Positions 32,751-52,477 of a stretch of 64,000 bases of DNA are shown here, piece by piece. The stretch is from a bacterium (GTDB lineage Archaea > Thermoplasmatota > E2 > JACPAO01 > JAHFTW01), in assembly GCA_040390065.1 (NCBI GenBank), contig JAZJZE010000005.1, forward strand, positions 373,170-437,169, given 5' to 3'. Position numbers and translations under genes: made by a program. The notes beneath the pieces are model-generated. The model was not told the origin of the DNA, searched no databases, and saw nothing but the letters and a program-made list of their open reading frames with translations. The number at the start of each line of letters is the position of its first letter. Positions within the stretch are counted from its first letter, which is position 1.

Positions 32751-33716
32751 ATGCGGGCGGCCCTTGGTAGCATCCTGGTGGCCGTTGCCGTCTCCGCCCT
32801 TCTGGTTTCCTCTTTCCCCGTTGCAGGCCGCTCCCAAAATGAACTCCTAACCGCCGTCGGCCAGCTTGGCGGAAGCAATCAAGCCTCATACCTGGCGTCG
32901 TTTCCAACCGTCGCGGTCATCAAGACCAATTTGGAGGCCAGGCTCCAGGTTCCCAACATGCCCCTTGCCGACCAGCAGCAGTTGGATGCCCTCCTGGTGC
33001 TAGCATCCAATCATGCTCAGGCATGGACTAACTTGCAGGGCATTGGACAGGGTGCCGGGCATGACCAACTCGTTGGCCTGCAGGGTGTGCTGGCTGCGGC
33101 CAAGGCCTTGAAATCCGAGTTGCAGACCAGCACTGCCGAGCCGGACACGGTGGACCTGTTGCTCCTGGCGACGCTGGACCTGCTCCGCTCCACGGGGGAC
33201 ATGGCCCGCAGCGCGGCCCAATCAACGGTCTCCGTCCCTACTGCGGATCGTCTAGCGTTTTTCCAGGTGGCAATTGAAGGTTACCAAGAGGCGGGGCAAG
33301 GTTCTAACGCCGCGGCAATGCAACGCGAATTTGATGGAATGTCGCGGACCTATACTGCCGACATGGAGGCTGCTGACAACGCCATCCGCGCAGCTGAAAC
33401 CGCTCGCGATGAACCCATTGCTTGGTTTGTGCCTTTAATCAGCCAATACGGTGGCATGAGGGCTGCCGTGTCCGACTTGCAAGCATCAGGGGCGAAACTC
33501 CAGGCGCACGGGGAAACCCAGCGATCCGCGCAGGCCCAGCAAGATTTGACCGGCTTGCAAGCCCACCTCGCACAGGCCCAACGGCAGCTGTTGCAGTCGT
33601 TGGCCGTCTACCTCGCAATTTCCCTCGTTGTTTGTGCTTGGGGCACGCGGGCAACCTACAGGTGGCAAAGCGACGTTCGAACTGCAAGCCTGGGAAGCGG
33701 CATTCCGGGGACGTGA
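32751..33716 (+). CDS. Secreted helical protein with C-terminal TM anchor (ESCRT/tubulin locus)
   Basis: Signal peptide, Ala/Gln-rich helices, TM, tail WQSDVRTASLG. Confidence 0.7.
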   Translation: MRAALGSILVAVAVSALLVSSFPVAGRSQNELLTAVGQLGGSNQASYLASFPTVAVIKTNLEARLQVPNMPLADQQQLDALLVLASNHAQAWTNLQGIGQGAGHDQLVGLQGVLAAAKALKSELQTSTAEPDTVDLLLLATLDLLRSTGDMARSAAQSTVSVPTADRLAFFQVAIEGYQEAGQGSNAAAMQREFDGMSRTYTADMEAADNAIRAAETARDEPIAWFVPLISQYGGMRAAVSDLQASGAKLQAHGETQRSAQAQQDLTGLQAHLAQAQRQLLQSLAVYLAISLVVCAWGTRATYRWQSDVRTASLGSGIPGT

Positions 33717-33719
33717 CCT

Positions 33720-35864
33720 TTGCGCGTTGCCACCGTCCTTCTAGTCCTTCTTTTCGCCGCCGCGCTTCCGCCCTCGAGCCAGGCCCAACCGCCGCCGGCG
33801 CCTGACATTGTGCTCACGACGTCCTCTGGAACGTCATCCCTAGCGCTGGACACACGCTATTCAGCCACGGACTCGGCGACTGCCTATGTTACGGTGAATG
33901 TTCGCAACCAAGGAACCGCGTCGGGAACCGCCACGCCGGCGGCGGCTGCGAGTCTTTCCCTCCCGTCCGGGCTCACGGCCAACTGTAGCAGTTGTTCTAC
34001 AGCTACTGTAAGTGCCGGGTCCTCGACTTCGTGGACTTACCAGTTCACCGCTAGCGCTTCCGATTCTGTGACGCCCGCCAGCGGCGCGGTGAGCATCCCT
34101 ATTTCGGTTGCGGCGGGCACAATCACGTACACTGCGAACTTGGCCGTGACCCGCCAAGACGCCGGCCGGCTTTCTGCCCAGGTTACGCCCGCGGTCTACA
34201 CTCTGCCTTGTCCAGGAAGCACGACTGGCTCGTCCACCTACATCACAGTCCAACTGACCAATGGCGGGGCCACGGCCGTGTCGCTGTTCTCCAATCCCAC
34301 TTTGACCCAGACGACGGCGTCCGGGGTGACAATTTCGCTTTCCTCGCCAGGCAGTTCGTCAATTGGCGCGAATGGCGGCGCAACCTCTCTCCAATATCGA
34401 GTCGACATCAGTTCTGACTTTGCCTCGCGCAATTCCGGCGTTCAGCTTTCGGGTACAGCTGGGCTCCAAATCTCGTATTCCACGACGCGAACCCGACCCG
34501 ACGTCTCGGCCAGTCTTCCCTTTACGATCACCATCCCAATCCAAGTGTCGTTCCTGGACAACGCAGGATTTGTTCAGACCGGTTCGGCGCTGAGCCACGA
34601 CTTTGGGAATGTCGAAATGCAACGCGCTGCATCCCAGTCGGCGCAATTCCGCGAGTCCTGTGGATACCGCGCGATCTCCTTGTCCGCCGATGATCTGGCG
34701 CACAACTCGTTTGCGGTGGCGCCGGCTGCAACTACAATCTTGGGTGGCGGAAGCGCCACCATGGATTTCGGGGTCCTTTTCACCCCGGGGGGCGGGGCCA
34801 GCGTTTGCAAGGCCGAGAACTGGTCCTATCGCGTCGTCGGCTCCACCGCAGGTTCGCAGCAGTACACGCAGCTCTTCGAATTCAGAGCCCAGCCATCCTT
34901 CCAGGATCTGACGGCATACAAGGCCGAATTGGAGACGGCGGCTTCTGGCATCGAAGGATACGATTCCTCCCTGCGCAATCACCTTCTCGCTCTTCGTAAC
35001 GACGCGGACAGTCACACGCAGGGCGGCAGCGGATGCAGTGACGTGCAAGGTGAAACCGCTTTGCTGGTCGGAGTATTGCAACCCCTCGCCTATGCAACGC
35101 GAACCCTGAACGATGCCCAGGGTAAGGTTGCCGCATCCGACTTTGCAGGGGCCAGCACGGCCTTGCTGGGGGGGGCTGCGGCGACGCGAGCCATTAGGAA
35201 CCAATGTTCCAAGATTGTCCAACTGGCTGATGCCGCGTCAGATTGCAAGGCGGCTACCGACGCTCTGACACTGCACTGGACTGCCCTTGCAAATCAGGCG
35301 CGTGACAACTTCAAGGCACAGTTGGGGCCAGGAGCAAATCAACAAACCTTGCTCGATGCCCATGCTGGGCTCGGCCTCATCTATAGGGCATTAAGCCAGC
35401 CAGAACAGGCCAGGGAGGAAGACCAGCTGGCGGAGTCCTCGAGTCAGCGCATTCAAGAATTGCGCAGCCAAGCAACAGAAGAGTTGGACCAGGCGACAGG
35501 GACGCCGACGAATCCCTGGCTTTTTGCTCACATCGGAGACACCTCAGTTGCTTGGAATCCCCTGGGCTATGGCGCGTTGCGTGAATCGCGTGCGTCCACG
35601 GAGGCGCATTACGTTGCGGCAATGGACGCGTACAAGGCGGCCGGTGATACTCGGTCCGCCCAAGAAACGGAGCAAACCCTTGCAGCAATGCAGGCGACGT
35701 ACGGCCGCGCTCAACTGGCTAGCCAGATTGTCCTTGGCATGTGGATCTTGTTGTTCCTGCTTATCGGCGTCCATGTATGCATCCAGACCATTGGCTTCGC
35801 CAATGACCAAAAGCGAATTGCCCTCGGGTTCACGTTGTTCAACTCACCAAAGGGAGGAAGGTAA
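33720..35864 (+). CDS. Large surface protein: signal peptide, Ser/Thr-rich Ig/CARDB-like domains, helical stalk, C-terminal TM
   Basis: VTVNVRNQGT, VQLTNGG, DFGNV beta-sandwich motifs; C-terminus similar to the 32751 protein. Confidence 0.7.
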   Translation: MRVATVLLVLLFAAALPPSSQAQPPPAPDIVLTTSSGTSSLALDTRYSATDSATAYVTVNVRNQGTASGTATPAAAASLSLPSGLTANCSSCSTATVSAGSSTSWTYQFTASASDSVTPASGAVSIPISVAAGTITYTANLAVTRQDAGRLSAQVTPAVYTLPCPGSTTGSSTYITVQLTNGGATAVSLFSNPTLTQTTASGVTISLSSPGSSSIGANGGATSLQYRVDISSDFASRNSGVQLSGTAGLQISYSTTRTRPDVSASLPFTITIPIQVSFLDNAGFVQTGSALSHDFGNVEMQRAASQSAQFRESCGYRAISLSADDLAHNSFAVAPAATTILGGGSATMDFGVLFTPGGGASVCKAENWSYRVVGSTAGSQQYTQLFEFRAQPSFQDLTAYKAELETAASGIEGYDSSLRNHLLALRNDADSHTQGGSGCSDVQGETALLVGVLQPLAYATRTLNDAQGKVAASDFAGASTALLGGAAATRAIRNQCSKIVQLADAASDCKAATDALTLHWTALANQARDNFKAQLGPGANQQTLLDAHAGLGLIYRALSQPEQAREEDQLAESSSQRIQELRSQATEELDQATGTPTNPWLFAHIGDTSVAWNPLGYGALRESRASTEAHYVAAMDAYKAAGDTRSAQETEQTLAAMQATYGRAQLASQIVLGMWILLFLLIGVHVCIQTIGFANDQKRIALGFTLFNSPKGGR

Positions 35865-36407
35865 ATGCCCCTTCGCAGAAAAGAGAGCAAAGTTGAGCAA
35901 CGAGTTGCTGGCGTCATGAAAGAGATTGACGCGGAATACAGCTACTGGAGCCAGGAGTTGGAGAAGGCACGCGAAGATTTGGAACACGGTCGCCGCGCCA
36001 ACGATGGACACCGGGCGGCCCGAGCCGAACAACGGATGGCCAGAATCGAGGACCGCCGGCGCCAGATCAACAACATCATGGCGATTCTCCAGAACTTGAA
36101 GGACAATATCCGTTTCACACAGGGAACCATTGAGAAGTACCGTGAAATTGGCACCATCGTCGGCAAAGAGGGCACCGGCGCGGAAATGCGGGAGCACCTA
36201 GCCGGTGTCACCGAGCACTTGCAGGTCCTCACTGAAAGCCAGTCAAAGTTGGAAAGCCAGATGGATATTGCCTTGGCAATTTCACGGTCTCCTTTGGGAT
36301 CTGCATCCTCGACTGTCCCTGCCAGCTCGCCCTCCGCCCAACCGGATTTGGATCGTGAGAACGAGGAACTTCAGAAACGGCTTCGCAAGTCACGGCGACT
36401 TTCGTAG
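35865..36407 (+). CDS. ESCRT-III/Snf7-like coiled-coil protein
   Basis: 180 aa helical hairpin, Ser/Pro linker, C-terminal ENEELQKRLRKSRR (MIM1-like). Confidence 0.6.
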   Translation: MPLRRKESKVEQRVAGVMKEIDAEYSYWSQELEKAREDLEHGRRANDGHRAARAEQRMARIEDRRRQINNIMAILQNLKDNIRFTQGTIEKYREIGTIVGKEGTGAEMREHLAGVTEHLQVLTESQSKLESQMDIALAISRSPLGSASSTVPASSPSAQPDLDRENEELQKRLRKSRRLS

Positions 36408-36891: not shown

Positions 36892-38703
36892 TCACGAGGT
36901 CATCCGCGCTCGCCACGCCGGATCTTGAACCACCGTGCTCACCAGCGCCGCCTGGACTTGGAGAAAAAGGACTTGAGCTACAAGGTCTGCGCCAGTCCTT
37001 TGCCTTTCCTGAAATGCCTGCGAAAGCGCCTGCCATAGAGTCGAGGGCAGCAGGACGTCATGCCCGGCTGCCAGTTTCGTGATTGCCTCGTCCAGGCGTT
37101 GGATTGTCGCGCCAACTCGTTGGCGCTCCTGGATGAGTTGGTCTGAGGACGCCCGGAGGAGAATCTGGGCAGCATCAGAGGAAATCTCCAGGCGTGGGGC
37201 CGAAGCAAGGTTGCGCCGTGAGGACGTCAGCTTGTTAATGATCGCCTTTTCGGACAGAGTCGCCTGCAAAGAGGCAATCAGGTTATGGCCTTCCCGAACA
37301 AGGGCGCGGTGAACTGCGACCGGGGCGTACGGACTTGACAGAAGCAAGCCACCCCATTCGGGTAAGCCCTGTAGACCAGTGAGAAAGGGCGCGGCTGCTT
37401 GATTGACAAGGGCGCCCATTTCAGGGTCGAAGCTTGCACATTGTCGGACCAACCGCTCGCTATCCTGACGGAGGGCCACCAAGGCGTCAACGTCAGGTCC
37501 AGTTGGCTGGAAACGGAATCCTACCGAAAGCTGAATCGTGCCGTTGCCGCCCGACGCCGCATCTGCGACGGTGTCTTCGAATCCTTCCCGTTCCACTGCC
37601 GTGCCTACAAGGCAACCGTCCACGGTCGTCTCGACGTCAAATCGGACCCGGCCCTCCAGGTCGGATTTCTGTTGGGCCACAATTTGTTCCCCGCGCTGGA
37701 GGAAAACGGGGATTCCTTGCAATGCCGCGCCCGTGCGTTCGCCCACGACACGTACGGCGATCGACACTCGGTCAGCGGTCAGCGCGATTCGTTGGACGCC
37801 GTCGGCCTGCAGGCGCACCTCCGTTGGCCTGTATCCGGGCGCCGATACGACGGCACGACCGGCCAGGGGCGCCGTGAAGTGTAGGACGCCGTCTTTCCCT
37901 TTCGTCGCATGGCTGAACGGAACTTCCCCGGCAGCATGCTCGACAGATGCACCAGAGATAGCGCGCCCGTCTCCGCTGTCTACGACCTGAATGCTAAATT
38001 CGTGCGTGGAGGCCCGCCGGGCAACTGGGGCGGCAGGGATGGGGTAGGTCGGCAAGGAGCCTCGTGCCGCCGTCCTTGTCGGCTCCGCCGCAACAGTTCG
38101 CGCCACTGGCCTGCTATGGACGGAGGGCGGGCGGGCGGCAGGATTTCGGTCGGGCGCGCGGGAAGTTTTCCCGGAACGGCTGCCAATCACGCTGATGAGA
38201 CCCGAAATTCCAACCAAGATGACCGCGGGGCCGAAGCCCAGCGAAAGGGTCCACAGCCAGAATCCGCCGGGCAGTACCATGCCCGCCGCTACCTCATAGC
38301 CCCCGCCGGGAGGGGAAGGTGGCTGTGCAGTTGCGACTCCATCCTGGAAAACCCGGAATCGATAGGTATTCCCGTTCGCGACATGGACCCCGTGATCGTT
38401 CAAGGTGGCGCGTGAGACATCCAGTTGACCATTTGATGGCGCCAGCCCTGACACAGCGCCTAGCGGGCTTGCCGTCTTGTCGGCGACTGAATCGAACTCT
38501 AGGGTGTAGGTCTTGGAGTCGTCGAGCGCGTACCCCTTGGTTTCATTCGTGTCGCCAGGTTTGAAGTGAAGCTCGCCGAAGAGATCGAGACTTGCTGTGG
38601 CCTCGCCCCCAATGCGGCCCGAGCTCCAGTTCCACACGAGCACTCCGGAGGCCAAGAGGAGGCCGATCGCGAGCCCAATCGCTAACGGGAGCCCCACGCG
38701 CAC
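36892..38703 (-). CDS. Two-TM protein with carboxypeptidase-regulatory/Cna-like Ig domains and helical C-terminus
   Basis: TMs at aa about 5-25 and 140-170; VVDSGDGRAISGASV, VSAPGY, TGAALQGIPV, SDLEGRVRF. Confidence 0.65.
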   Translation of the reverse strand: MRVGLPLAIGLAIGLLLASGVLVWNWSSGRIGGEATASLDLFGELHFKPGDTNETKGYALDDSKTYTLEFDSVADKTASPLGAVSGLAPSNGQLDVSRATLNDHGVHVANGNTYRFRVFQDGVATAQPPSPPGGGYEVAAGMVLPGGFWLWTLSLGFGPAVILVGISGLISVIGSRSGKTSRAPDRNPAARPPSVHSRPVARTVAAEPTRTAARGSLPTYPIPAAPVARRASTHEFSIQVVDSGDGRAISGASVEHAAGEVPFSHATKGKDGVLHFTAPLAGRAVVSAPGYRPTEVRLQADGVQRIALTADRVSIAVRVVGERTGAALQGIPVFLQRGEQIVAQQKSDLEGRVRFDVETTVDGCLVGTAVEREGFEDTVADAASGGNGTIQLSVGFRFQPTGPDVDALVALRQDSERLVRQCASFDPEMGALVNQAAAPFLTGLQGLPEWGGLLLSSPYAPVAVHRALVREGHNLIASLQATLSEKAIINKLTSSRRNLASAPRLEISSDAAQILLRASSDQLIQERQRVGATIQRLDEAITKLAAGHDVLLPSTLWQALSQAFQERQRTGADLVAQVLFLQVQAALVSTVVQDPAWRARMTS

Positions 38704-39971
38704 TACTTCGCCTCCTTCATCAGGGCCTGGGCGCGCTTCACCCGATCGAGATAGCCATCCAGATTGGCCTTGATTTTCTTCAGTCTGCGGCCGAGCTCCT
38801 CGTTTCCGGGCTGCAGGGTCAGCATCTGGCTTACCTGGTCGAAGTGCTTCAACGGCTTGCGAAGGAGGGGGCGCAGATCAAATCCACCCAGCACAAGCAG
38901 GACGTCAAAGCCTGAGCTGTCCTGATCGCTCACCGTTAGCGAACTCATTCCGACAACGGTACTCAGATTCTTGCGCTGCCATTTCGTGAACGTGTCCAGG
39001 ACACCTTTCGCCGTAAAGTCATGTTTGCCGAGCAGCTCCTCGGGTACACGCACGATGAGGTACGCCACGAGGACGCTCTTTGGATCGACTTCGACGAAGG
39101 ATTCCTTCAGCGCGAAGTCGAGCGCCAATTCGAGTTCTACAATGTCGGGATCGTTGCCCAGGGAAAGCCCGCACGTGAAATGCGTGAGCCCCATCTTGCC
39201 GGGGAGCCGGATGAGATCCTCAACGTCAATGACGTTGACAGCGCGTCGGCCGCCGGCCGTTAGCAGGTCCAAGGCGTCGGCAATGCGCCGATTGATGTCG
39301 TAGAAGTCAGCCTCGGCCGCCTCCCCCGCATCTCCTAGACTTGCCAATCGCGAATTGTCGCAGAGCATTACCCAGTCGGCGTTAGGCATCCCCGTATCCT
39401 CCTGCATGAGTAGGCGAGACAGGCCGGCAACGGCATTGAAATGGCGGTGCTTGTCCTCATTCTCGAAGGGCCATGCGGCCACTGCAAAATGGTGGACCTT
39501 GTCTAGTCCCAGGCCTCCTTTGCTCTTCATGGAGCGGATGATGTAAGGGACGCTGCCATTTCCGGTGCCGCCGCCAAGGGTGGTCAGACTAATCAAAGCG
39601 TCTCCCTGCCCGATGCCTACGGCCAGCATCTTGCGCCTGATGTTCGTTTCAAAGTGCATGACCGCATAGTCCTCACCTTGGGTAAACAGGTTGCCGGCAC
39701 CGCGGTGCTCGCCGAACTCCACAACGTGTCCCTTACTGATTTCATCGATGCGATCCGACCCCGCACTATCATCGAGGCGGATGCGGAGTTCGTCCAGGAT
39801 ATTTGCGAGGTCGCCTGGATTGGAATTCAGAAGTAGGATTCGATTGCCAACAGATGGGTGCTGCGTCTTCGAGAAGTACAGGGAAGCAATGCGCGTCCCC
39901 CCTTCTCCCGAGCCAACGACGGACCAGCGGCTATGCCGGCTCCGGCCTGCCACCCCAGATTCATCAGCCAT
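38703..39971 (-). CDS. Tubulin/FtsZ-family (CetZ-like) GTPase 2
   Basis: VVGSGEGGTRIA, GAGN, LGGGTGNG, WPF, LCDN, INRRIA, IDVED. Confidence 0.88.
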   Translation of the reverse strand: MADESGVAGRSRHSRWSVVGSGEGGTRIASLYFSKTQHPSVGNRILLLNSNPGDLANILDELRIRLDDSAGSDRIDEISKGHVVEFGEHRGAGNLFTQGEDYAVMHFETNIRRKMLAVGIGQGDALISLTTLGGGTGNGSVPYIIRSMKSKGGLGLDKVHHFAVAAWPFENEDKHRHFNAVAGLSRLLMQEDTGMPNADWVMLCDNSRLASLGDAGEAAEADFYDINRRIADALDLLTAGGRRAVNVIDVEDLIRLPGKMGLTHFTCGLSLGNDPDIVELELALDFALKESFVEVDPKSVLVAYLIVRVPEELLGKHDFTAKGVLDTFTKWQRKNLSTVVGMSSLTVSDQDSSGFDVLLVLGGFDLRPLLRKPLKHFDQVSQMLTLQPGNEELGRRLKKIKANLDGYLDRVKRAQALMKEAK

Positions 39972-41415
39972 CGCGGACCTTCCCCTTGACCTTCGTCGGT
40001 GCCGTCTTCTTGACCTGCTTTGCCTCGCCGGTGGGCGCGTCAGCTGCGGCGGGCACGAGGCTGCCATTCTTGAGCATCCATGTGGGGTTCTCCCGCGCAA
40101 ATTGCTCGAACACCTCGCTGGCATCCCGCAACTTGAGGTCCTTGGCCGTTACCAGACCCTTGCTCTTGATTGTGGCCTCAATCGTGGGTTTGAGCTTCTT
40201 GTAAAGGGGACGCAGCTTTGCGTCCTTGAGAGTGTCGCGGAATCCCGACGAAAGTTGTTCGAAACGTGGTCGCCAGTCGTTCAGGTAAGGCGCGACCGGG
40301 CCGCCGGCGATGGGCAGGGCCGCGGGACCACCGAAGGTTTCCACGTAGAGGCCCCAGGCCTCGGTTCCGCCTTCTTGCTTGGAAACCTGCGCTTCCAGTT
40401 CTGCAAGGGCAGCGCCCGCCAAGTCCACGAGTTGGGCACGCAGCGTGGGGATGCGACCGACCTGCAGGGGAGAATGGAGGGAGTCAATGGCCATGCTCAG
40501 TTCTTGGATTCGGTCCTGAGTCGCCCTTGCCAAGAGCGGGCGGCCGGGGGATTCATTGAGTTCTAGGAGCGCCCGCAAGAGTTCGTTGCGGCCGCGATCG
40601 AAGCCTTCCTTGAGTCTCCCCTCGAGGGCCCTCCCGCCATCGCGCAGATAGGTTAGAGCCGCCAGGACATTTCCTGATTCCATGGCTTTGAGAGCTTGCT
40701 CCCTTAGTGCCACTGCCGATGCCGATTCCTTGTATTCGGCTTCCACGGAGCGAATTGCTCCTTGCAAGCCGTCATTTGCAGACCGGGCGATTTCGTGCAA
40801 GGCACCGTGCAGTTTCTCGAGGGCGTCCTTGGGGTCGCTGGCAACTTGGCTCGCCGGCGGGAGCGGTTTGCCCCACCCCATTTTTTCAAGGTCACGAATC
40901 AGGGGTTGCGCGGCGGACCGCAGGGCATCCGTTCCCTGCCGGATGATGACGTCAGCATTCGCTCGTGCGGCGGCCAGCTTCGTGCGTTGACGGTTGAGAA
41001 GCGCCAGATCCATTTCGTCCTGGCGCCGGGCATTAGCTTCGAGGGGCTGATCGGCATGTTCCGATTGGCGCAGATACGGCTCCAGGTCCGCGCGGATGGG
41101 GGCCAAGCTGGGGAGGGTTTCGCGGCTTGCCCCAAGCAAACGGGCTGCGGAACCCAGGCGACTTTCAAGAGCGTTGAATTGCTGGATGAATTCCGCTAGT
41201 TCCCGGGCCTTGAGTTGAACCGGAAGACTGTATTTGTTCATCGAGACCATGCTTCGCTTCATCAGCAGAATCCCAACGCCGATCAAGATGGGGCTTCCCA
41301 GCAAAGCGAACCCGGCGATCTTGTTCCCGGTGTCCATGAAAAAGGCGCCCAGGGCGAGGAGCGCCACGGCCGTGCCTGCCGAGGATACAGCAATGATTTT
41401 CGTTTCGTTGTTCAT
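39964..41415 (-). CDS. Two-TM anchored coiled-coil protein with possible C-terminal winged helix
   Basis: Two N-terminal TMs, long helical region, TIEATIKSKGLVTAKDL...WMLKNGSL. Confidence 0.65.
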   Translation of the reverse strand: MNNETKIIAVSSAGTAVALLALGAFFMDTGNKIAGFALLGSPILIGVGILLMKRSMVSMNKYSLPVQLKARELAEFIQQFNALESRLGSAARLLGASRETLPSLAPIRADLEPYLRQSEHADQPLEANARRQDEMDLALLNRQRTKLAAARANADVIIRQGTDALRSAAQPLIRDLEKMGWGKPLPPASQVASDPKDALEKLHGALHEIARSANDGLQGAIRSVEAEYKESASAVALREQALKAMESGNVLAALTYLRDGGRALEGRLKEGFDRGRNELLRALLELNESPGRPLLARATQDRIQELSMAIDSLHSPLQVGRIPTLRAQLVDLAGAALAELEAQVSKQEGGTEAWGLYVETFGGPAALPIAGGPVAPYLNDWRPRFEQLSSGFRDTLKDAKLRPLYKKLKPTIEATIKSKGLVTAKDLKLRDASEVFEQFARENPTWMLKNGSLVPAAADAPTGEAKQVKKTAPTKVKGKVRDG

Positions 41416-41419
41416 GGGG

Positions 41420-42733
41420 TCATCTCAGCAGAACCTGGAATAGGCGAAGCAATCCAAACGGCAAGGCAATGGCTGCCCCGACAACAAGGGCGACAAGGCA
41501 GCCGATTGCCGCGAATTTGGTGGCGTCGAGGGCACGGAAGCCCGCGTCGTAGCCAATCCATCGGGCAACTTTGGTTTTCCATCGGCGCCCCCAGACCCAC
41601 GTGCCCGCCGTCGCTGCCAGGGCACCGCTTGCAGCGGTAAGGCCAATGCCCATGGACAGTTGCCAACGGGCCCCCTGCAGAGCGGTCTCTGCGGAATCAA
41701 AGCGAGTTTGTGAGGTCTCGCGAAACGCTTGGTCGACCTCGGAATCAATCGTTGCAACCGCCGTCTTGACCGTCGCCAGTTGGTCCCAGGTTGGCAGCGG
41801 GCTTTGGTCCATCTGGAAACCTTCGATTTTTGAGCGAATGGCTGCCACGGTTCCGGTCGGTGCTCGCACGGTCTTGTTGTATGTTCGCCATGCCTTCTCG
41901 GCCATGGTTGCGTTACTGCTGTTCCTGATGTCGTGGATGGCAGTTGCGGCCGTGGAATTTAGGCTTTCAACAAGGGAGCGAAGCTCTCCGTATGCAGCGC
42001 GATCACCGGAAGGAATACAGAAGGGGGCCTTTCCAAGCGCCCGTTCAACCGGGTAGGCGAGTGCGAGAGTTTCCGTTCCGGACGGGCAATCCGCGAACGG
42101 GCAGGAAGCAGATGTGATCTTGCCCGCTGCCACTGATGTTCCGTTCCATGTGGCACGCCACTGGAACTCGACGGATCCGGAGGTTGCGCTGCCACCCGAC
42201 AGCGGAATCGCAACCCGGCTCGTCCCATTGTTTGCCGCTAGGGGAACCACCTGTTGGAGCGTGGAGCCCTTCCATGTCCCCACAGCGTCGACGTGTAGCT
42301 CTGTATCGAGCCTTGCAACCAAGTTGCCGGCGTGTATTGTAAACTCAGCCTGCCCGCCCCGCGTGAACGGGCACGGAGGCGCATCGACGCTGACCAGGTA
42401 CGGAATGTTCGGCCGGAGCGGCAAGGTCGATACCGTATTGTTGGCCGCCACGGCGACTTGCTCGATGGCCAGCGCGTTCGAGCCGTTCCTAATGATCAAG
42501 GTAGAAACGCCCGGAGCGAGACTAAGCGTCATTGATGTCCCGGTAACTGGGAGAGTTTGATTTGCAGTGCCGCGGTGTTCCACAACGAGTTCGAGAGGCT
42601 GGCCACCCGGGAAGCCATCCAGCTGGACTGCAAGGTTCGCCGTCACCGCCGGAAGACCCGAGCTGCCGCCAACAACGGCTGCGCTAGCCAACAAGATGCA
42701 GAGGGGTAGCAGGGCGAGCCGAACACGGTTCAC
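41420..42733 (-). CDS. Secreted Ig-like plus helical protein with two C-terminal TMs
   Basis: Signal peptide from GTG 42733, several N-x-S/T sequons, two hydrophobic C-terminal segments. Confidence 0.65.
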   Translation of the reverse strand: MNRVRLALLPLCILLASAAVVGGSSGLPAVTANLAVQLDGFPGGQPLELVVEHRGTANQTLPVTGTSMTLSLAPGVSTLIIRNGSNALAIEQVAVAANNTVSTLPLRPNIPYLVSVDAPPCPFTRGGQAEFTIHAGNLVARLDTELHVDAVGTWKGSTLQQVVPLAANNGTSRVAIPLSGGSATSGSVEFQWRATWNGTSVAAGKITSASCPFADCPSGTETLALAYPVERALGKAPFCIPSGDRAAYGELRSLVESLNSTAATAIHDIRNSSNATMAEKAWRTYNKTVRAPTGTVAAIRSKIEGFQMDQSPLPTWDQLATVKTAVATIDSEVDQAFRETSQTRFDSAETALQGARWQLSMGIGLTAASGALAATAGTWVWGRRWKTKVARWIGYDAGFRALDATKFAAIGCLVALVVGAAIALPFGLLRLFQVLLR

Positions 42734-43020
42734 TTTCCAGCCTCCAATTCCCGCTTGAAGCGTCGGCCAATCAGAGGGCCCGCAAGCCCGAAGCCAGCGG
42801 CGATTCCGAGGCAGGCGCCCACAACCCATGCTATCCAGGCAGGTTGAAGAGAGTCGGCCGCCCCTTGGGCGTCGGCCTGGCCTTGAGATTCGCTAGCAAT
42901 TTCGTCCGGTCCGTTTCCGCTTAGACCCGGCCGATGCAGGGGCGACAGCACGAGCAGTAGGAGCAGAGCCAAGGCCGCCGTTCCCAGCAAGAATCCCAAA
43001 AATGGCCAGCCCTTCGTCAC
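42730..43020 (-). CDS. Small two-TM protein
   Basis: Two TMs; GTGA overlaps with both neighbours. Confidence 0.6.
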   Translation of the reverse strand: MTKGWPFLGFLLGTAALALLLLLVLSPLHRPGLSGNGPDEIASESQGQADAQGAADSLQPAWIAWVVGACLGIAAGFGLAGPLIGRRFKRELEAGK

Positions 43021-44291
43021 AGACCAAGGACCCCCCCCGCATTGTAGCGCATTGCGAGGTCACTGATCTGCTGCAACCGCGTGAGCTGCTTGCGCTCAAA
43101 GGTAAGAAGCGTGTTGACGCTCACAATCGGTCGACGGCCAATGGTGATGCCAAAATGGGTTTCTTGTAGCCGGGACATCTTCCCAAGCTTCGCCTCAACC
43201 TGCCCTGTCTGCGGGAAAAAGCGCGGGTTCTTCGCGAGATTTAGAGGGAGTCGCACGAGGCCGAGGTTCTTCTGGGCCTCCTCCGGACGTACGTCCTGAA
43301 TGCTTTGCTTTCGCAATGCCACCTCGAGGAGGGCGGTGCAGTCCACATTCCGGCGGCCGAGACCTGGCAGCAGGTAGCCTCGGTACTTTCGCGTGGTATC
43401 CGCGGCCCAGCCGATGCTAGCGTAGCCCGGACGGCGGCCCCGGTCTCCTGTCCCGAAGCTGATTGCGCTTGCTATGTCGCGTACATCCGTCACCTTGAGC
43501 GACATGTTGCCAGCCTTGGCCAAGTCGAGGTCGTCCAGTAGGTGGGCAGCAAGTAAGTCGGCCATAGCCCGCGCGACGTAGGCATTGAAGTCTGGGAAAA
43601 GCCGCTCCACTTCGCCTGCATAAGCGAGGCGCTCGTTATCCACTAGGATGAAACCGTCGGCGACCTTTTCCAGTTCATCGAGGGCGAAGATCGTGTTCCA
43701 TGCCTGACGGTGGGTCCCGCGGGCACCGTCCTCGGAACCTTCGTGCGTCGCCGGCAGAATGCCGACCACGATGATAGTCGTCCGGCCGGCTGAGGCCTCT
43801 CGCAGGGCCTTGGCAATCAATGCGGCGGTGCCACACCCGGTGCCGCCCCCAAAACCAAGGAACAGAACGGCGTCTGGAATCGTACCGACGTCCTGCTCGG
43901 TCACCTCCCATTCATCGCCGTCAGTGGCGACGTTTCTGGTCTTGCTGGTCAGGTTCGCGGCGCCGGTCTCGCGCGCAGCGAAATCCTTGAAGAAGGCGAT
44001 GAGGGCTTCCATGTTCTTGCCAATGCGCTCCTGCGCCAGTCGCGGGTCTTTTCCAAATCCGCCAACGACCATCGATTCGATGCCAGGAGTGGGGCCTGGA
44101 ACGATTCCCTTGGTTTCAGAAAGGCCCAGCCAGTTGGAACGCGGAATATGCTTGAGAGATTGAAGGTCCTTGATCGTGGAGTTGATTGCCAAGGGCTTGT
44201 GCGCCTTGGAGAAGTGCTTGAAATGCTGGGGGTCCATCATTTGATCCACAATGGCTCCGCCAGCTTGTCCAATTCCAATCAGTAGTGTCAT
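43017..44291 (-). CDS. Tubulin/FtsZ-family (CetZ-like) GTPase 1
   Basis: IGIGQAGGAIVD, AINST, GGFGKDP, FGGGTGCG, GILPA, ILVDNE, FN, TDVRD; ATGA overlap with the ATPase stop. Confidence 0.9.
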   Translation of the reverse strand: MTLLIGIGQAGGAIVDQMMDPQHFKHFSKAHKPLAINSTIKDLQSLKHIPRSNWLGLSETKGIVPGPTPGIESMVVGGFGKDPRLAQERIGKNMEALIAFFKDFAARETGAANLTSKTRNVATDGDEWEVTEQDVGTIPDAVLFLGFGGGTGCGTAALIAKALREASAGRTTIIVVGILPATHEGSEDGARGTHRQAWNTIFALDELEKVADGFILVDNERLAYAGEVERLFPDFNAYVARAMADLLAAHLLDDLDLAKAGNMSLKVTDVRDIASAISFGTGDRGRRPGYASIGWAADTTRKYRGYLLPGLGRRNVDCTALLEVALRKQSIQDVRPEEAQKNLGLVRLPLNLAKNPRFFPQTGQVEAKLGKMSRLQETHFGITIGRRPIVSVNTLLTFERKQLTRLQQISDLAMRYNAGGVLGL

Positions 44292-45493
44292 GTCTTGCCT
44301 CCCGATGACTGCGAAGATGCATAGTTCTCGTAGTATTGCAACTGCTCGGGTTTCAACGCGGCAGGAACACTTCGCATCGCTTTCTCGAAGTGTGCCCACG
44401 TCAAGGGAAGCGTGCGCAACTTTTCGCCTGACTTGAAGTCGGCGCTTGCGTCCCCCAGGCTCGGATTCGCGTCCTGCAGCATGGCATGCACGGCGTCGTC
44501 GCAGAGGTTCTTGAGGTCCCGACCGGAATAGCGCTCCGTCCTTGAGACAAGCTGGGCTAGGTCGAAGGCAAGTTCGTGTCCCCGGGTTTCTAGCCGGACA
44601 ATCTGCTGGCGCGCCGCCGCGTCGGGTAGAGGCACGTACACCTTTTTCTTGAACCTGCTACGGATTGCGTCCGAAATCTCATCAGGCCGATTCGTGGTGG
44701 CAATCGTGATGACTTTGGGCGGACCTCCCTTCGCCGAGAAGCCGTCCAGCATTTGCAGGAACGTATCGTGCAGCTGGGTAGCAACCTCATGGCTGCCTTC
44801 CGTATGGCGGCCTAGCCGCGTGAACTCGTCCAAGAAAACGATGCTCGGTGCCCGCTGCTCCGCCTTCTTGTAGAGGGTGGTGAGAAGCTTTCCCGAATCA
44901 CCGACCCATTTTGATTCAAGATTGGCCAGGTTGACGTTGAAGAACGTCATGCCGTTCGCTGAAGCCGCCGCGCTCGCCAAGAGAGTCTTGCCGGTCCCTG
45001 GCGGACCGTACATCAGAATCTTGTCTGGTACTCCGATTTTCAGGCCTTCTGGCTTTTCACGGAAGAACATCTGGATGGCGCTCACAATGGTGCGCTTGGT
45101 TTCTTCGAGACCAGCGATGTCTTCCCAGCGGGTCTTGGACGTTTCAATCATCGCTTCAATGCGGCGATCCAAGCTTCCCTGGTCTTCGTCTTCCTCGGAT
45201 GCAGGACTGCCCGCCTTGTCGTCACGAGTCCTGGTCCTGGAATTTCCGGGTGGAGGTCGTGGAGGGCTACGGAGATTAGCGGCTCGGTCTCGCAATTGTT
45301 GAACACGAATTCTTGCTTGTCCTTGCGTATAGGCCGTGCGAGCGAGCTTTGCGACCTTGTCGGCTTGGGCAGCCGCCTCGTCATACGCATTAGCGGCACC
45401 GGCAGGATCGTGCCCTTCGAGTGACGACGCGCGCGCAATGGCCGCCCGCATCTTCTCTTCGGCGATGGAGACCGCCAATTCCTCCATGCCCAT
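44288..45493 (-). CDS. Vps4/CdvC-type AAA+ ATPase with N-terminal MIT domain
   Basis: MIT-like AANAYDEAA...LRDRAANL; WEDIAGLE, GPPGTGKT, SKWVGDS, IVFLDE, TTNRP...AIRSRF, VPLPD, YSGRDL. Confidence 0.9.
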   Translation of the reverse strand: MGMEELAVSIAEEKMRAAIARASSLEGHDPAGAANAYDEAAAQADKVAKLARTAYTQGQARIRVQQLRDRAANLRSPPRPPPGNSRTRTRDDKAGSPASEEDEDQGSLDRRIEAMIETSKTRWEDIAGLEETKRTIVSAIQMFFREKPEGLKIGVPDKILMYGPPGTGKTLLASAAASANGMTFFNVNLANLESKWVGDSGKLLTTLYKKAEQRAPSIVFLDEFTRLGRHTEGSHEVATQLHDTFLQMLDGFSAKGGPPKVITIATTNRPDEISDAIRSRFKKKVYVPLPDAAARQQIVRLETRGHELAFDLAQLVSRTERYSGRDLKNLCDDAVHAMLQDANPSLGDASADFKSGEKLRTLPLTWAHFEKAMRSVPAALKPEQLQYYENYASSQSSGGKT

Positions 45494-45500
45494 CGCGGAC

Positions 45501-46082
45501 TCAGCTCCGCAGAGGGTCGGCAACCTTCAGGCGCGAGTTGAGAGCATCGTCAATCTTCTCCGGCGGGAGGGATTCCAGCTCCGTCATGATGCTCATGAAG
45601 TTTGAGTTGTTCATTTCGGAAGAAGCCGAGAGCGCGTCCTGCGATTGCTCGATTTGCTCCGCGAGTCCGGCAAGGCGAATGCCAATTTTCTGCTCGCCCT
45701 TCGCCAAGTCACGGATGCTGTGACTCAGATCGCTCATCGTTTTCGCACCAACAATTTTCTTGAGGGCCTTCAGGGCACCTTCCGTCTCAAGCTCCTGGGC
45801 CTCGTAGCTGCTCTTGATGGCCGTGGCCGCGGAATAGACGGCAATCTTGTAGGAAACTGCACGCTGCGTTGAACGGGCGGAGCTGTAGAACCCCTGGACC
45901 TGGGCGGCAATGAGTTGTTTGGAGGAGTTCGGCGCGCCGATGGCCTTCTTCATGAGGTCGCGAGCCTTCTTGTCGGCCTGCTCGATTTGACGGGACTTGA
46001 TGTTGATGTCCGCATTCAAGTCGAAGATCAGGTCATCCAGTTGCTCGATTTTCTTAGAGGTCTTTTTTCCGAAGAGGCCCAT
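45501..46082 (-). CDS. ESCRT-III (Snf7/Vps24-like) protein
   Basis: MGLFGKK amphipathic N-terminus, helical body, C-terminal DDALNSRLK (MIM1-like); adjacent to the Vps4-type ATPase. Confidence 0.7.
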   Translation of the reverse strand: MGLFGKKTSKKIEQLDDLIFDLNADINIKSRQIEQADKKARDLMKKAIGAPNSSKQLIAAQVQGFYSSARSTQRAVSYKIAVYSAATAIKSSYEAQELETEGALKALKKIVGAKTMSDLSHSIRDLAKGEQKIGIRLAGLAEQIEQSQDALSASSEMNNSNFMSIMTELESLPPEKIDDALNSRLKVADPLRS

Positions 46083-46086: not shown

Positions 46087-46671
46087 TCACTCCCGTCCCT
46101 GTGGCTTTGTCTTGGTAGATTTGTTGGTGGCTGGCTCTTCCGCCTTCTTCGTCGGCGCGGGCGCCGAGTTGATCATGCGCTCTTCCTCCGACAGTTCCCC
46201 GGAACCAGCTCCAGTCCCCTCAGAAAGTCGGCCGCGACGCTGCTCCGTCTGTGCCCGGGCCTTCTCCACTTCCTTCTGGCGGCCCTCGAGAGCCTTGCCA
46301 AGCTCGTGATCAGACATTTTTCCAGTTACCTTGTCGAGTCGCTTCGCACCGCGCACCGCCTCGGTCCCGCGGCGCTGCTCAATGAGAGCAGTCACGGTTT
46401 CTTGCTGGGCCAACAAAGCATCGAAATCCTGCTGGAGGCGTTCAATTTGGGGGCGCAGTTGGCGTGCCTTGCTCGCTCGCAAGCGAACGTCGTTGTCCGT
46501 TTCCTCGGGGCGTCGACCGGAAAGCAATGCATCGTACTGCGCTCGGAGCTGCTTGAGTTGGGCGTTCGTACCGTCCGCCCTTACGCCGAGCCGCGTTTCC
46601 TCGTCCGCTAGCTTGTCAAGCGACAATTTGTCCAACTTTTTCGAAGGATCTGAGCGGCCAAATGGAATCAT
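46087..46671 (-). CDS. ESCRT-III-like coiled-coil protein, first gene of the operon
   Basis: MIPFG N-terminus, long charged helical hairpin, 194 aa, context. Confidence 0.55.
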   Translation of the reverse strand: MIPFGRSDPSKKLDKLSLDKLADEETRLGVRADGTNAQLKQLRAQYDALLSGRRPEETDNDVRLRASKARQLRPQIERLQQDFDALLAQQETVTALIEQRRGTEAVRGAKRLDKVTGKMSDHELGKALEGRQKEVEKARAQTEQRRGRLSEGTGAGSGELSEEERMINSAPAPTKKAEEPATNKSTKTKPQGRE

Positions 46672-46880: not shown

Positions 46881-47648
46881 ATGCTTATGCCATACGGCCA
46901 GCGTGTACAGGGCGTGGCGGAAGCGCAGCGCCGGTGCCCATTTTGCAAGAGCACCATGGTCCCGAATCGCATGGCTTCTGGGGCCCTGCGTTGCTCCGTC
47001 TGCGACAATACGGGCGTGGTGCGCGAGAATGCGCCATCGACGGTTGTCGTCGTTGCAGCCAACCCCGCGCCCGCGCCACCTCCGCCCGTTGTTCTAGCCG
47101 AACAACCGGCGGCATCGGCCTGGGCCCCCCAGGTCCCGGTGCAAGCCACCACGTTTGCTGAATCGGCTCCGTCTTGGGAACAAGTCCCCGAAGCACCGGC
47201 GCAGTGGCAACCCGCCCCGCCCGCTTGGACACCACCTGCGTCTTCCAGTCAGGGGTCCGGGTTTGCTCGGCTTTCAGGCGGGCAGAAGACGGCCGTCGTT
47301 TGCAGTGGCCTCATGGCCATCGGGGCGCTGGGCCCATGGATTGAGATCTTGGGTTTCAGCGTGTCCGGAACAAAAGGCGACGGTTGGTTCATTGCGGGGC
47401 TGGCAGCCGCGGCCGGCTTGACGCTTCTTTTCGCAAACAAGGCCTCGACGAGGAAGGGTGTGGCGGCAACCTGCTTTGCCGTGGGGCTCGTCATTGTCCT
47501 GGTAGAGTTTGGTCAGCTTCAGAGTAAGATTGGAAACACGAGTCTGCAACTTTCGGATTTCCTCAGTTGGGGGTTGCCCCTGGCGCTAATCTCCGGCATT
47601 ATCGGGTTCATTGGGTCCCTCCAATCGCCTCGGTACAAAGGTCAGTAG
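46881..47648 (+). CDS. Zn-ribbon / Pro-rich linker / four-TM membrane protein
   Basis: CPFC...CSVCDNTG, PAPPPP, LGPW...GDGW membrane domain. Confidence 0.7.
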   Translation: MLMPYGQRVQGVAEAQRRCPFCKSTMVPNRMASGALRCSVCDNTGVVRENAPSTVVVVAANPAPAPPPPVVLAEQPAASAWAPQVPVQATTFAESAPSWEQVPEAPAQWQPAPPAWTPPASSSQGSGFARLSGGQKTAVVCSGLMAIGALGPWIEILGFSVSGTKGDGWFIAGLAAAAGLTLLFANKASTRKGVAATCFAVGLVIVLVEFGQLQSKIGNTSLQLSDFLSWGLPLALISGIIGFIGSLQSPRYKGQ

Positions 47649-47704: not shown

Positions 47705-48217
47705 ATGGCCAGAAATGTATTCGCGGCATCCTTGCTTGTTGTGGTCTTTTCGGCGATGCTCCTGGCCGGATGTGCCAACAACTCTGGCTACCAGCCTCAA
47801 TCCACGTACCAACCCCAGCAGGGGCAGCCGCAGGCACAGCCCCAACCGGCACAGCCGCAGCCACCTCCCCCACCTCCGGCCCAGCCCACGCTGCATTACA
47901 TCGTGCAGAATCACGTTGCGGCCGTAGCCGCGGGTACCGTAGGTTCCTATTCCTTCGAAATCACGGGCGCACCCGTCGACACATACTACCAGTGGACGCG
48001 CTCGGACGACAGCGCCGTTGACACGGGATTCATCCGGGCATCGGACCTTGCTGAATACAAGCAAGGCCAGACCGTTAATGGTTGGGCAATCAATCGACAG
48101 GCTGCGAGCGTCACAGATCACGCCACCCTGCCCGTCGAATCTTACGCCTATATCATCAAGTGCGACAATTCATTTGCCGACTGCGACGGCACGTTCTCAA
48201 TCTACTACTACGCTTGA
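47705..48217 (+). CDS. Lipoprotein with Gln/Pro-rich linker
   Basis: Lipobox LLAGC; QPQ repeats; small beta domain with a Cys pair. Confidence 0.7.
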   Translation: MARNVFAASLLVVVFSAMLLAGCANNSGYQPQSTYQPQQGQPQAQPQPAQPQPPPPPPAQPTLHYIVQNHVAAVAAGTVGSYSFEITGAPVDTYYQWTRSDDSAVDTGFIRASDLAEYKQGQTVNGWAINRQAASVTDHATLPVESYAYIIKCDNSFADCDGTFSIYYYA

Positions 48218-48269
48218 CGGGCGACGGTCAACTGGAAAGAGCCTTGTACGCTCGCCTTCGTCTAGAATC

Positions 48270-48824
48270 GTGGCGGGAGAAGTCGTCTGTCCGTACTGCC
48301 GATCTGCGGTCGCGCCCCTTAGGGACGCTCAAGGCAGACTCGTCTGCCCTGCCTGCATGAACACCGGCCAGGTGCAGGCGGCGTCGGCGTCTGCCAGCAC
48401 GCCAAGACCGGTCCCTCCACCGAACCGAGCGGCCAGCTACGGCGGGAGGTATCCGGCCGATGTCGTGTCGCAGCTCCTCCCCGGCGAGGAGGTTCGCTAT
48501 TTCTCGTACGTAGCGCAGAAAGGCGGATGCATGAGCTCCGCGCCGCGCGACGAACACTGGGTCGCGATGACGAACAAGCGCTTCATGTACAAGGCCCTGG
48601 TTCGTCTCCAGGATCGAAAGACGACGGTCGAAAAAGACGGGGTAATTCCATTGGCCATGGTATCGGTTGTCCAAGTAACGGAAGTCCGCCAAGCCGGTTG
48701 CTCGGGAACGAAATCCTTCCAGCTCATGATTGGATCATCCGGTAACGAGATTGCAATTCCAATTCTGACGCGTGAGAAAGGCGTCGAGGTTCGCAATGCC
48801 TACTCCCAAATCATCCACGGCTAG
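48270..48824 (+). CDS. Zn-ribbon plus PH-like domain protein
   Basis: CPYC...CPACMNTG; LLPGEEV, VAMTNKRF, IPLAMVSVV (bacterial PH-like). Confidence 0.65.
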   Translation: MAGEVVCPYCRSAVAPLRDAQGRLVCPACMNTGQVQAASASASTPRPVPPPNRAASYGGRYPADVVSQLLPGEEVRYFSYVAQKGGCMSSAPRDEHWVAMTNKRFMYKALVRLQDRKTTVEKDGVIPLAMVSVVQVTEVRQAGCSGTKSFQLMIGSSGNEIAIPILTREKGVEVRNAYSQIIHG

Positions 48825-51526: not shown

Positions 51527-52477
51527 CTACGCAAAGGGGGCTGCGGCGGCGCGGGGCGTGGCGTCCTGCCACACTGGAGGTAGATGCGGCGGGCGAAGGT
51601 GCGGGTCTGGGGCGAGGGCGGCCGCGACGAATTGAGGAACCCCTGGTCCCGCTGCCTGAAGGGCAGAGGAGGCGAGCGCCTCCTCAGAAATGGCGGCATG
51701 CGTCCTGGCATACTCGTCCCACGCCTCTTGGGGCGGATGAATCAGATTTGTGTAGGGTGGGCGCCCTGTAGCAACAGTGAAAATTGATGACCCGAGAGAA
51801 AAGAAGTCGGCGCGGCGGTCCAGAATGTTGCGGCATTCCATGATTTGTTCAGGGGCCCAATGTACCCATTTCCCTGAACCCAAGCGATACGGCGCTGGAG
51901 TGCGCGCAACCATGTCTTTCTCGGACCGGACGCTACCCACGTCGACGAAGACGGTGCGCCCAGTTCGGTCGTCGACAACGAGGTTAGCGGGCTTGAAGTC
52001 GCGCATGACAAATGCCCCCCTTGGGCTCTCGTGAAACCTTGGGAATAGTTGCACGGCGGCTTCAAGCAGGCTTCGGACCAACTTGACTCGGCGGCTGGCA
52101 GACGTCGCCCCATGAAGAATATCTGACAGCGCGATCCCGGGCACATATTCGCGTGCGAGGAACCCGCCGTCTAGGCTCTTGGCAACGAGGCGGGGTACGG
52201 CGTCGCACCGAAGGGCGCCGAGGATCATCTCTTCTCGACGCAGAGTTGATTCGGCGGCTGCCGCCTCTTGGGCCGTTCTCCCGGCATAGGCCGGGACCTT
52301 CACGACAACGTCATCCCCTGTCTTCATTCGCAGCAAGAACAGTGCGCCCTGCCCGCCAACCGATAACTGGCGGATGGACGTGCATTCCGCGTCAATTGCA
52401 CGGAAGGCTTCCGTCAGGCGGGCGGCAATTCGAGGATGCTGCGCCGCGTGGCGAATTTGGTCGCTACCTGTCTGCAC
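51527..52477 (-). CDS. Hanks-type Ser/Thr protein kinase-like protein
   Basis: GGQG loop, VVKVP, RDFKPAN, VDVG, APEQ, DFFSLG. Confidence 0.85.
   Translation of the reverse strand: MQTGSDQIRHAAQHPRIAARLTEAFRAIDAECTSIRQLSVGGQGALFLLRMKTGDDVVVKVPAYAGRTAQEAAAAESTLRREEMILGALRCDAVPRLVAKSLDGGFLAREYVPGIALSDILHGATSASRRVKLVRSLLEAAVQLFPRFHESPRGAFVMRDFKPANLVVDDRTGRTVFVDVGSVRSEKDMVARTPAPYRLGSGKWVHWAPEQIMECRNILDRRADFFSLGSSIFTVATGRPPYTNLIHPPQEAWDEYARTHAAISEEALASSALQAAGPGVPQFVAAALAPDPHLRPPHLPPVWQDATPRAAAAPFA

Follow-up and report, generated by a model that had tools for sequence, protein, structure and literature searches.

A probable divergent ESCRT-III encoded with an MIT-type AAA ATPase and two tubulin-like GTPases in a rare archaeal operon

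The window analyzed here, meaning the whole 64,000-nucleotide stretch of DNA, carries on its minus strand a compact operon in which the genes follow the order E3-2, E3-1, MIT-AAA ATPase, CetZ-like Tub1, membrane proteins, Tub2, and another membrane protein (Table 1). The initial annotation had singled out an open reading frame with an MGLFGKK start adjoining an AAA ATPase, and both genes are present as described; on the plus strand, the E3-1 interval is interrupted by stops in the reading-frame check. The E3-1 protein begins with MGLFGKKTSKK and ends with ...LPPEKIDDALNSRLKVADPLRS (equivalently, ...ESLPPEKIDDALNSRLKVADPLRS). Its gene lies 4 nt from E3-2 and 7 nt from the start of the ATPase gene, and the ATPase and Tub1 genes share an ATGA in which the stop of the former overlaps the start of the latter; these junctions fit the expectation for one transcription unit. 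GC content is 0.58–0.63 over 28–60 kb, where the operon lies, versus 0.65–0.68 over 1–28 kb, and no tRNA was found in the window. PADLOC returned only generic AAA matches for the locus, which is thus not a known defense system. The archaeal origin suggested from the sequence was corroborated by genome markers, as ribosomal protein L31e was found and L35p was not, and we infer that the host is non-Asgard.

Table 1. Genes and protein elements of the operon and of the convergent genes next to it
Feature	Coordinates	Strand	Basis
E3-2, helical protein, 194 aa, start MIPFGRSDPSKK, Pro/Lys-rich tail; possible second ESCRT-III-like subunit	46087..46671	-	ORF
E3-1, ESCRT-III-like protein, 193 aa	45501..46082	-	ORF; AF2 model; hhalign family profile
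MGLFGKK, E3-1 residues 1-7, putative membrane-inserting hydrophobic/basic start	46062..46082	-	sequence
LPPE turn and amphipathic helix, E3-1 residues 173-187, with partial MIM1-like DDALNSRL	45522..45566	-	AF2 helix 174-185; tail alignment; motif counts
Vps4-like AAA ATPase, 401 aa	44288..45493	-	Pfam AAA 118.6 bits, AAA_lid_3 34.3 bits
MIT-like three-helix N-domain of the ATPase, residues 1-78	45260..45493	-	AF2 model; best structural matches are MIT domains
Tub1, divergent tubulin/FtsZ-family GTPase (CetZ-like), 424 aa, from M37 of a long ORF	43017..44291	-	Pfam Tubulin 55.1 bits, above cut-off 33
Small membrane protein, 96 aa	42730..43020	-	ORF; two hydrophobic segments
Membrane protein, 469 aa, N- and C-terminal hydrophobic segments	41420..42829	-	ORF; same position and topology in G056
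Protein, 483 aa; two membrane segments at the N-terminus and a long, helical cytoplasmic region	39964..41415	-	ORF; G056 positional counterpart with same topology
Tub2, second divergent tubulin-like protein, start M52 of a long ORF (inferred)	38703..39971	-	Pfam Tubulin 30.3 bits, below cut-off 33
Membrane protein, 603 aa	36892..38703	-	counterparts in G056 (topology) and G025 (sequence, 27%, E 5e-16)
Convergent trio: 321-aa and 714-aa proteins (each with N-terminal signal-like and C-terminal membrane segment) and 180-aa coiled-coil protein	32751..36407	+	

The same gene order is kept in a second genome of the phylum (G056), with identities of 38% for E3-1, 34% for the ATPase, 33% for Tub1, and 32% (over 394 residues) for Tub2. 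The start of Tub1 was set by alignment to its G056 counterpart, and its best PDB sequence matches were 4b46, 4b45, and 3zid, which we take to be CetZ structures. A tubulin-type GTPase domain is indicated by the Pfam score of Tub1, that of Tub2 lying below the cut-off, and by the GGGTG-type signature, present as GGGTGCG and GGGTGNG in the tubulin-like sequences; Tub2 also matches the ftsZ model weakly. The five membrane proteins of the two loci correspond position by position in the topology of their hydrophobic segments, with no BLASTP similarity between them at E 1e-3, and for the convergent trio G056 has proteins of 785 and 304 aa that match in topology. A reduced module, consisting of Tub1 (58% identical) and four membrane proteins, occurs in G025 and also, on a short contig, in G029; the 469-aa membrane protein has a relative 28% identical over 148 residues in G025, and the 714-aa protein of the trio one that is 25% identical over 684 residues (E 1e-24). 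The reduced module contains neither ESCRT-III nor ATPase genes, which makes the ESCRT-III/ATPase pair an addition to a core of tubulin and membrane proteins.

E3-1 itself escapes the standard models. Neither it nor nine homologues matched Pfam Snf7 (PF03357) at E-values up to 0.1–1, NCBIfam gave nothing relevant for E3-1, including no CdvB match, and PDB sequence (phmmer) and profile searches returned coiled-coil noise only. AF2 modeling (pLDDT 82.5) placed helices at residues 3–47, 52–94, 101–111, 116–129, 131–153, 159–171, and 174–185, so that the predicted protein of about 200 aa would have the ESCRT-III layout of a long α1–α2 hairpin followed by the shorter helices α3–α5/6. Among the best weak structural matches in the Foldseek/VIA comparison, CdvB, CdvB2, IST1, and CHMP1B recur, at a level not above the helical background, and Atlas embeddings of E3-1 point to Snf7-tagged clusters. 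A six-frame Pfam Snf7 search, an insensitive one in which S. acidocaldarius fell below the cut-off, gave hits above the cut-off in 10 of the 401 phylum genomes, nine of them in one small-genome family. The strongest evidence that E3-1 belongs to ESCRT-III is, at the level of sequence profiles, its similarity to such proteins: the E3-1 family profile (A1) aligned by hhalign with an alignment of nine Snf7-positive ESCRT-III proteins from its own phylum (A5), starting at residue 1 and extending over 166 collinear columns, with E 1.2e-4, score 35.3, and a probability of 55%, which is below the usual 90% bar. Column-shuffled versions of the A5 alignment scored 12.3 ± 1.9 (maximum 21.0; 0/100 reached 35.3) and the reversed one 13.3. 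The E3-1 family also aligned with an ESCRT-III-like protein of locus L008 (E 1.9e-4, graded weak or non-significant), and its comparison with a partial protein of locus L013 gave E 0.23. With the predicted layout and the controlled profile alignment, the ESCRT-III identity proposed by the initial annotation stands as the most likely one, and we regard E3-1 as probably a divergent ESCRT-III.

The N-terminus had been described as eukaryote-style, CHMP3 also beginning with MGLFGK. This wording was too strong, because the Snf7-positive ESCRT-III proteins of the same phylum start with M(A/V)LFKFGKS (MVLFKFGKSEEEK) or MGFFKKK, so that a hydrophobic-Gly-Lys head is also found on the ordinary ESCRT-III of the phylum, and the CHMP3 match is therefore a variant of the general ESCRT-III N-terminal motif. 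Starts within the E3-1 family vary as well (MGLFGKK, MKIPFFGEK, MKVPFFGKK, MGFFRKT, MVNIPFIGKR, and others). Judged by these sequences, MGLFGKK is a general ESCRT-III head that is neither Vps24-specific nor eukaryote-specific. E3-2 is possibly a second ESCRT-III-like subunit, sharing the N-terminal motif and the position only: in hhalign, its comparisons with the E3-1 family gave E 0.01 and E 0.007, the latter through the N-terminus alone, and that with the Snf7-positive set a non-significant E of 0.35. Its relationship to the syntenic G056 counterpart was detected by BLASTP at E 9e-4 over 98 residues.

The ATPase encoded downstream of E3-1 has a single AAA cassette and lid according to Pfam, with a Vps4_C score of 13.8 bits against a cut-off of 21.3; in NCBIfam it scored 147 bits against the CdvC cut-off of 650, and 180 bits with CDC48. 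Sequence methods did not match an MIT domain in it. The domain claimed for it nevertheless gained support from AF2 modeling (pLDDT 83.4; helices 3–25, 30–50, and 54–75), which predicts an MIT-like three-helix bundle with MIT domains as the best structural matches, and this N-domain is conserved in four homologues. The PDB matches of its C-terminal part were Cdc48, katanin, and fidgetin-like 1, and judged by sequence the ATPase is no nearer to Vps4 than to any of these three. The pairing with E3-1 is repeated in G056; a search with the ATPase alignment found one locus, L013, where a Vps4_C-positive ATPase, 38.7% identical to the present one, follows an ESCRT-III-like gene; and a family of 1.4–2.0 Mb genomes in the phylum, some of them single-contig, has a Snf7-positive ESCRT-III adjoining an MIT-type ATPase. 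This family resembles the Thermoplasmata clade of PMC10936438, and the phylum is presumed to be Thermoplasmatota. In the portions of PMC10936438 drawn on here, an MIT domain or ESCRT neighbors qualify an ATPase as Vps4-like, and the present protein, with its MIT-like domain and its ESCRT neighbor, counts as such. An AAA profile run over genome ORFs of at least 200 aa found only three AAA proteins, with no Cdc48 among them.

A further claim was that E3-1 ends in a MIM1-like tail, IDDALNSRLKV, of the type known from the Vps2/Did2 class. The peptide is present at residues 177–187, but it is followed by six more residues (ADPLRS). With MIM1 defined by the consensus (D/E)xxLxxRLxxL(K/R) in the C-terminal helix, the strict form occurs in none of the 11 E3-1 family members and a relaxed three-anchor form likewise in none, whereas the [DE]xxLxxRL core is present in 4/11 and a relaxed two-anchor form in 6/11. 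The final Leu was correctly noted as missing; the third Leu is absent from 11/11, as is the basic residue that closes the consensus, and the Arg position is variable (R, K, T, or H). The reading as MIM1 is therefore weak, and what the family does keep is an amphipathic helix after the LPPE turn: 9/11 members have an LPPE(Q/K) turn and, after it, a helix bearing hydrophobic residues at positions i and i+4, the conserved element being (L/M)PPE(Q/K) and then a short amphipathic helix ending in K(V/F/A).

These features bear on whether the tail is a genuine eukaryote- or Asgard-type MIM1, with DDALNSRLKV lying in the groove of MIT helices 2 and 3 as Vps2/Did2 tails do, and E3-1 accordingly a non-Asgard example of the Vps2/24/46 class. 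We consider this unlikely, although several observations speak for it. The [DE]xxLxxRL core is rightly placed and rare by chance, appearing within the last 25 residues in 0.11% (0.0011) of 20,000 shuffles of E3-1; a helix is predicted over residues 174–185; and 12 of the 17 invariant positions of the MIT-like domain cluster in helices 2 and 3, the pair that makes up the MIM1 groove (PMC7240154, in the sections cited). Moreover, three-anchor MIM1-like tails such as DKDLEDLLKSL are carried by 7/9 of the ordinary Snf7-positive ESCRT-III proteins of the phylum, so helical MIMs may predate Asgard archaea. The missing third Leu and basic residue and the inconstant Arg argue against the genuine motif, as does the absence of any sequence tie to Vps2/24/46, the sole profile link of E3-1 being to euryarchaeal-type ESCRT-III. 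A complex prediction for MIT residues 1–82 (A4) and E3-1 residues 154–193 (A2), run without controls, scored 0.00 against a mark of 0.32 and speaks neither for nor against binding. The most fitting description of the tail is a degenerate, MIM1-like helical element that retains two of three hydrophobic anchors; it is no bona fide MIM1 of the eukaryotic type. Through this element the ATPase may still contact E3-1.

The position of the ATPase gene between E3-1 and Tub1 also raises the question of its substrate. In eukaryotes, ESCRT-III brings MIT-bearing spastin to microtubules. By analogy, the ATPase could act like katanin or spastin, severing or disassembling filaments of the two CetZ-like proteins, with E3-1 and E3-2 acting as membrane adaptors that recruit it via MIT. 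The ATGA overlap with Tub1 would suit such a role, as would the best single-cassette PDB matches, which are katanin p60 and fidgetin-like 1 for both the whole ATPase and its C-terminal part, with no Vps4 chain among the PDB matches listed, and the retention of two tubulin-like genes in both operon-bearing genomes. We nevertheless judge this role improbable, since Tub1 and Tub2 have no acidic C-terminal tails, G025 has the Tub1 module without the ATPase, and the closest ATPases found (L013 and L008) adjoin ESCRT-III-like genes, not tubulins.

The E3-1 family is very small. An exhaustive search of 1.84 billion representatives with E3-1 gave 10 matches at E up to 1e-3, five of them at 1e-10 or better; a word-indexed search recovered three proteins with the single sequence and six with the profile, none annotated, and the single protein found no related locus among genome contigs and metagenome contigs. 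E3-1 was absent from the 12 genomes of the same genus and present in 3/401 genomes of the phylum sample, namely the source genome, G056, and G188 (a weak match, E 5.3e-4); in the order of G056 it was confined to G056 itself (1/15 genomes). Protein pairs from contigs of equal length, P0004 with P0016 (16,809 bases) and P0015 with P0018 (2,145 bases), suggest that the E3-1/ATPase pair recurs on two metagenome contigs. The operon is thus rare, patchily distributed, and apparently mobile. Elsewhere in the genome, two canonical FtsZ genes were detected at full score (427.7 and 398.7 bits), and no model match was obtained for CdvA or CdvB. Given the two FtsZ genes and the lack of the module in the close relatives searched, an accessory, horizontally mobile module is most likely, and the operon likely serves membrane remodeling as an accessory and is not the division machine of the cell.

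Taking gene order, motifs, predicted folds, profile similarity, and distribution together, we hypothesize, with somewhat better than even confidence, that the locus encodes a divergent ESCRT-III in a tight operon with an MIT-AAA ATPase recruited to its tail, the whole forming an accessory horizontally mobile module with tubulins and membrane proteins. E3-1, the product of the second gene of this tightly packed operon, may be anchored to the cytoplasmic face of the membrane by its hydrophobic/basic MGLFGKK N-terminus, and its α1–α2 hairpin may polymerize, possibly together with E3-2. The Vps4-like hexamer would be recruited through its MIT-like N-domain to the LPPE turn and amphipathic helix of E3-1 and would then remodel or disassemble the polymer, while the module as a whole might work together with both tubulin-like GTPases and the five membrane proteins. 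That E3-1 is instead an unrelated coiled-coil protein, such as a scaffold or a filament-associated protein serving the tubulin module, its terminal motifs being coincidental, is very unlikely: the negative Pfam, NCBIfam, and PDB sequence searches, the background-level structural matches, and the mutual attraction of coiled-coil profiles would all fit, but the full-length collinear alignment with the Snf7-positive proteins lies far above its shuffled and reversed controls, the N-terminal motif is common to both, and a gene directly upstream of an MIT-AAA is the standard archaeal ESCRT arrangement (PMC10936438, as far as the cited sections go).

A bolder extension of the ESCRT-III reading, to which we attach little probability, would make the operon a prokaryotic counterpart of the eukaryotic axis of ESCRT-III, MIT-AAA (spastin- or Vps4-like), and tubulin. 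The helical MIM-like tail of a membrane-bound polymer would then recruit an ATPase whose remodeling activity extends to the ESCRT-III polymer and CetZ-like filaments alike, coupled to five surface-exposed membrane proteins, in building or cutting a vesicle, protrusion, or envelope feature. If true, this and the three-anchor tails of the phylum would place helical MIM–MIT recognition and an ESCRT–tubulin link before or outside the Asgard lineage. In the cited sections of Lu et al. 2020 (PMC7240154), MIM1–MIT recognition is treated as Asgard-archaeal in origin and CdvB proteins are described as being without MIM1, and those of PMC8970359 give no identified interaction domains for euryarchaeal Cdv homologues and record MIM1, like the N-terminal ANCHR motif, for Asgard homologues alone. 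The E3-1 locus, and still more the ordinary ESCRT-III of the phylum (DKDLEDLLKSL), suggests helical Leu-rich tails beside MIT-type ATPases outside Asgard. The locus also extends the composite archaeal ESCRT systems by a rare, mobile grouping in which ESCRT-III-like and Vps4-like genes stand with two CetZ-like genes and a fixed membrane-protein set, and offers a compact system for asking whether cooperation between ESCRT and tubulin-family cytoskeletons is older than the eukaryotes.

Among known systems, the minimal ESCRT-III and Vps4 pair of a Thermoplasmata clade (Makarova et al. 2024, PMC10936438, in the parts cited), apparently of the same phylum as the E3-1 genome, likewise has an ESCRT-III gene adjoining an MIT-type single-cassette AAA ATPase. 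Both share the hydrophobic-Phe-Gly-Lys start, and their profiles align end to end. The differences are that the proteins of this clade are detected by Pfam Snf7 whereas E3-1 is not, that 7/9 of them have the third hydrophobic tail anchor missing in E3-1, that the ATPase lies upstream in L016 but downstream of E3-1 here, and that the E3-1 operon contains, in addition, two tubulin-like genes and genes for five membrane proteins. The Halo_adaptin system of Halobacteriales, as presented in the same sections of PMC10936438, also has a derived ESCRT-III-like gene just upstream of a Vps4-like ATPase, accompanied by a tubulin-family protein of the CetZ-like kind and by membrane or surface proteins, and is thought to be non-divisional. 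Its ATPase, however, is given there a VAT-N domain and no MIT, whereas that of the E3-1 operon is MIT-like; its locus encodes winged-helix and WD40/Ig adaptin-like proteins, none of which were found here by Pfam; and the E3-1 operon carries two tubulin-like genes. For a CetZ-like protein linked with an ESCRT locus, PMC10936438 was the only literature found, and its supplementary tables, beyond the sections cited, may list such loci. The FtsZl1/FtsZl2 systems (Makarova and Koonin 2010, PMC2875224) were rejected as a model because their vWA, GTPase, and OmpA partners, as described in the cited part, do not fit.

The Vps2/24/46-class ESCRT-III with MIM1 of eukaryotes and Asgard archaea (PMC7240154, cited sections) resembles E3-1 in its C-terminal helix, in the acidic-xx-Leu-xx-Arg-Leu core, in the adjacent MIT-bearing ATPase, and in the short hydrophobic N-terminus; the E3-1 family differs in the final Leu, the basic residue, and the Arg already discussed. 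From the crenarchaeal CdvB–CdvC pair (MIM2–MIT), E3-1 is set apart by having neither the Pro-rich MIM2 nor the winged-helix domain, and its genome by having FtsZ and no CdvA/CdvB model match. The eukaryotic ESCRT-III/spastin/microtubule axis brings together ESCRT-III, MIT-bearing AAA proteins of the Vps4/katanin/fidgetin kind, and tubulin. The E3-1 operon combines the same three kinds of protein, although here the link is genomic and the tubulins are CetZ-like, not α/β-tubulin. Seen against these systems, the operon represents an uncommon, apparently mobile ESCRT and tubulin module, a variant of the known archaeal ESCRT systems.

Elsewhere in the genome that carries the ESCRT-III-like/ATPase operon, two canonical FtsZ genes were identified (427.7 and 398.7 bits), in addition to the two divergent tubulin/FtsZ-family genes of the operon itself (Tub1 and Tub2; see table). 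A smaller form of the module was observed in two related genomes, at loci L028 (G025:C20, 3717-12956) and L029 (G029:C254). In both genomes, which belong to the same order, this reduced module is composed of Tub1 (58% identity) and four membrane proteins; the ESCRT-III-like, ATPase and Tub2 genes are all missing at both loci.

To survey the AAA proteins of the source genome, a profile derived from the system ATPases was employed on ORFs of at least 200 aa, with a threshold of E 1e-10 or better. Only three AAA proteins were recovered, and a Cdc48-like two-cassette protein was not found among these ORFs at this threshold. Because the genome is 89% complete, the missing Cdc48-like protein and the small number of AAA proteins may reflect an assembly gap.

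The analysis of base composition revealed that GC content falls from 0.65-0.68 to 0.58-0.63 between positions 28000 and 60000 of the window. Beyond the operon, this low-GC stretch contains sugar-nucleotide and glycosyltransferase genes, a Ser/Thr kinase gene and many genes without a Pfam family; a membrane-anchored kinase is also situated at the border of the syntenic locus in genome G056. Where the low-GC region borders its surroundings, the RES-domain gene and the neighboring 189-aa ORF may constitute a toxin-antitoxin system. Among the genes flanking the operon, the 180-aa coiled-coil protein yielded no family match, and three hydrophobic segments were noted toward the C-terminus of the first of the two proteins with weak zinc-ribbon-type similarity.

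Genes of the low-GC stretch, the operon and its flanks
Feature	Position	Strand	Remark
RES-domain protein	28721-29560	minus	47.8 bits
189-aa ORF, no known family	29564-30133	minus	adjoins RES-domain gene
Third small coiled-coil protein, 180 aa	35865-36407	plus	last gene of convergent trio
Tub2, divergent tubulin/FtsZ family	38703-39971	minus	same operon as ESCRT-III-like and ATPase genes
Tub1, divergent tubulin/FtsZ family	43017-44291	minus	same operon as ESCRT-III-like and ATPase genes
Weak zinc-ribbon-type match, first of two	46881-47648	plus	divergent from operon; below Pfam cut-offs
Weak zinc-ribbon-type match, second of two	48018-48824	plus	divergent from operon; below Pfam cut-offs
Ser/Thr kinase	51527-52477		in low-GC stretch

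Ordinary, Snf7-positive ESCRT-III proteins of the same phylum (L014-L024) begin with M(A/V)LFKFGKS, and seven of nine end in a three-anchor MIM1-like motif, e.g., DKDLEDLLKSL. For Euryarchaeota, no interaction domains are reported in the accessible part of PMC8970359. Another locus of the phylum, L008 (G188:C2, 9904-14127), lies in a low-GC genome and comprises three ESCRT-III-like helical genes alternating with two MIT-type AAA ATPases. A further cluster was observed on an Acidilobaceae MAG contig (L013; JALWGG010000164.1, 2-2537). Here, a partial ESCRT-III-like gene, whose product has the tail ...LTPEVVEEKLSVKV..., is in line with genes for a MIT-type ATPase, which is Vps4_C-positive, and for an FHA-domain protein. 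The gene order is similar to that of the FHA-associated ESCRT loci of PMC10936438.
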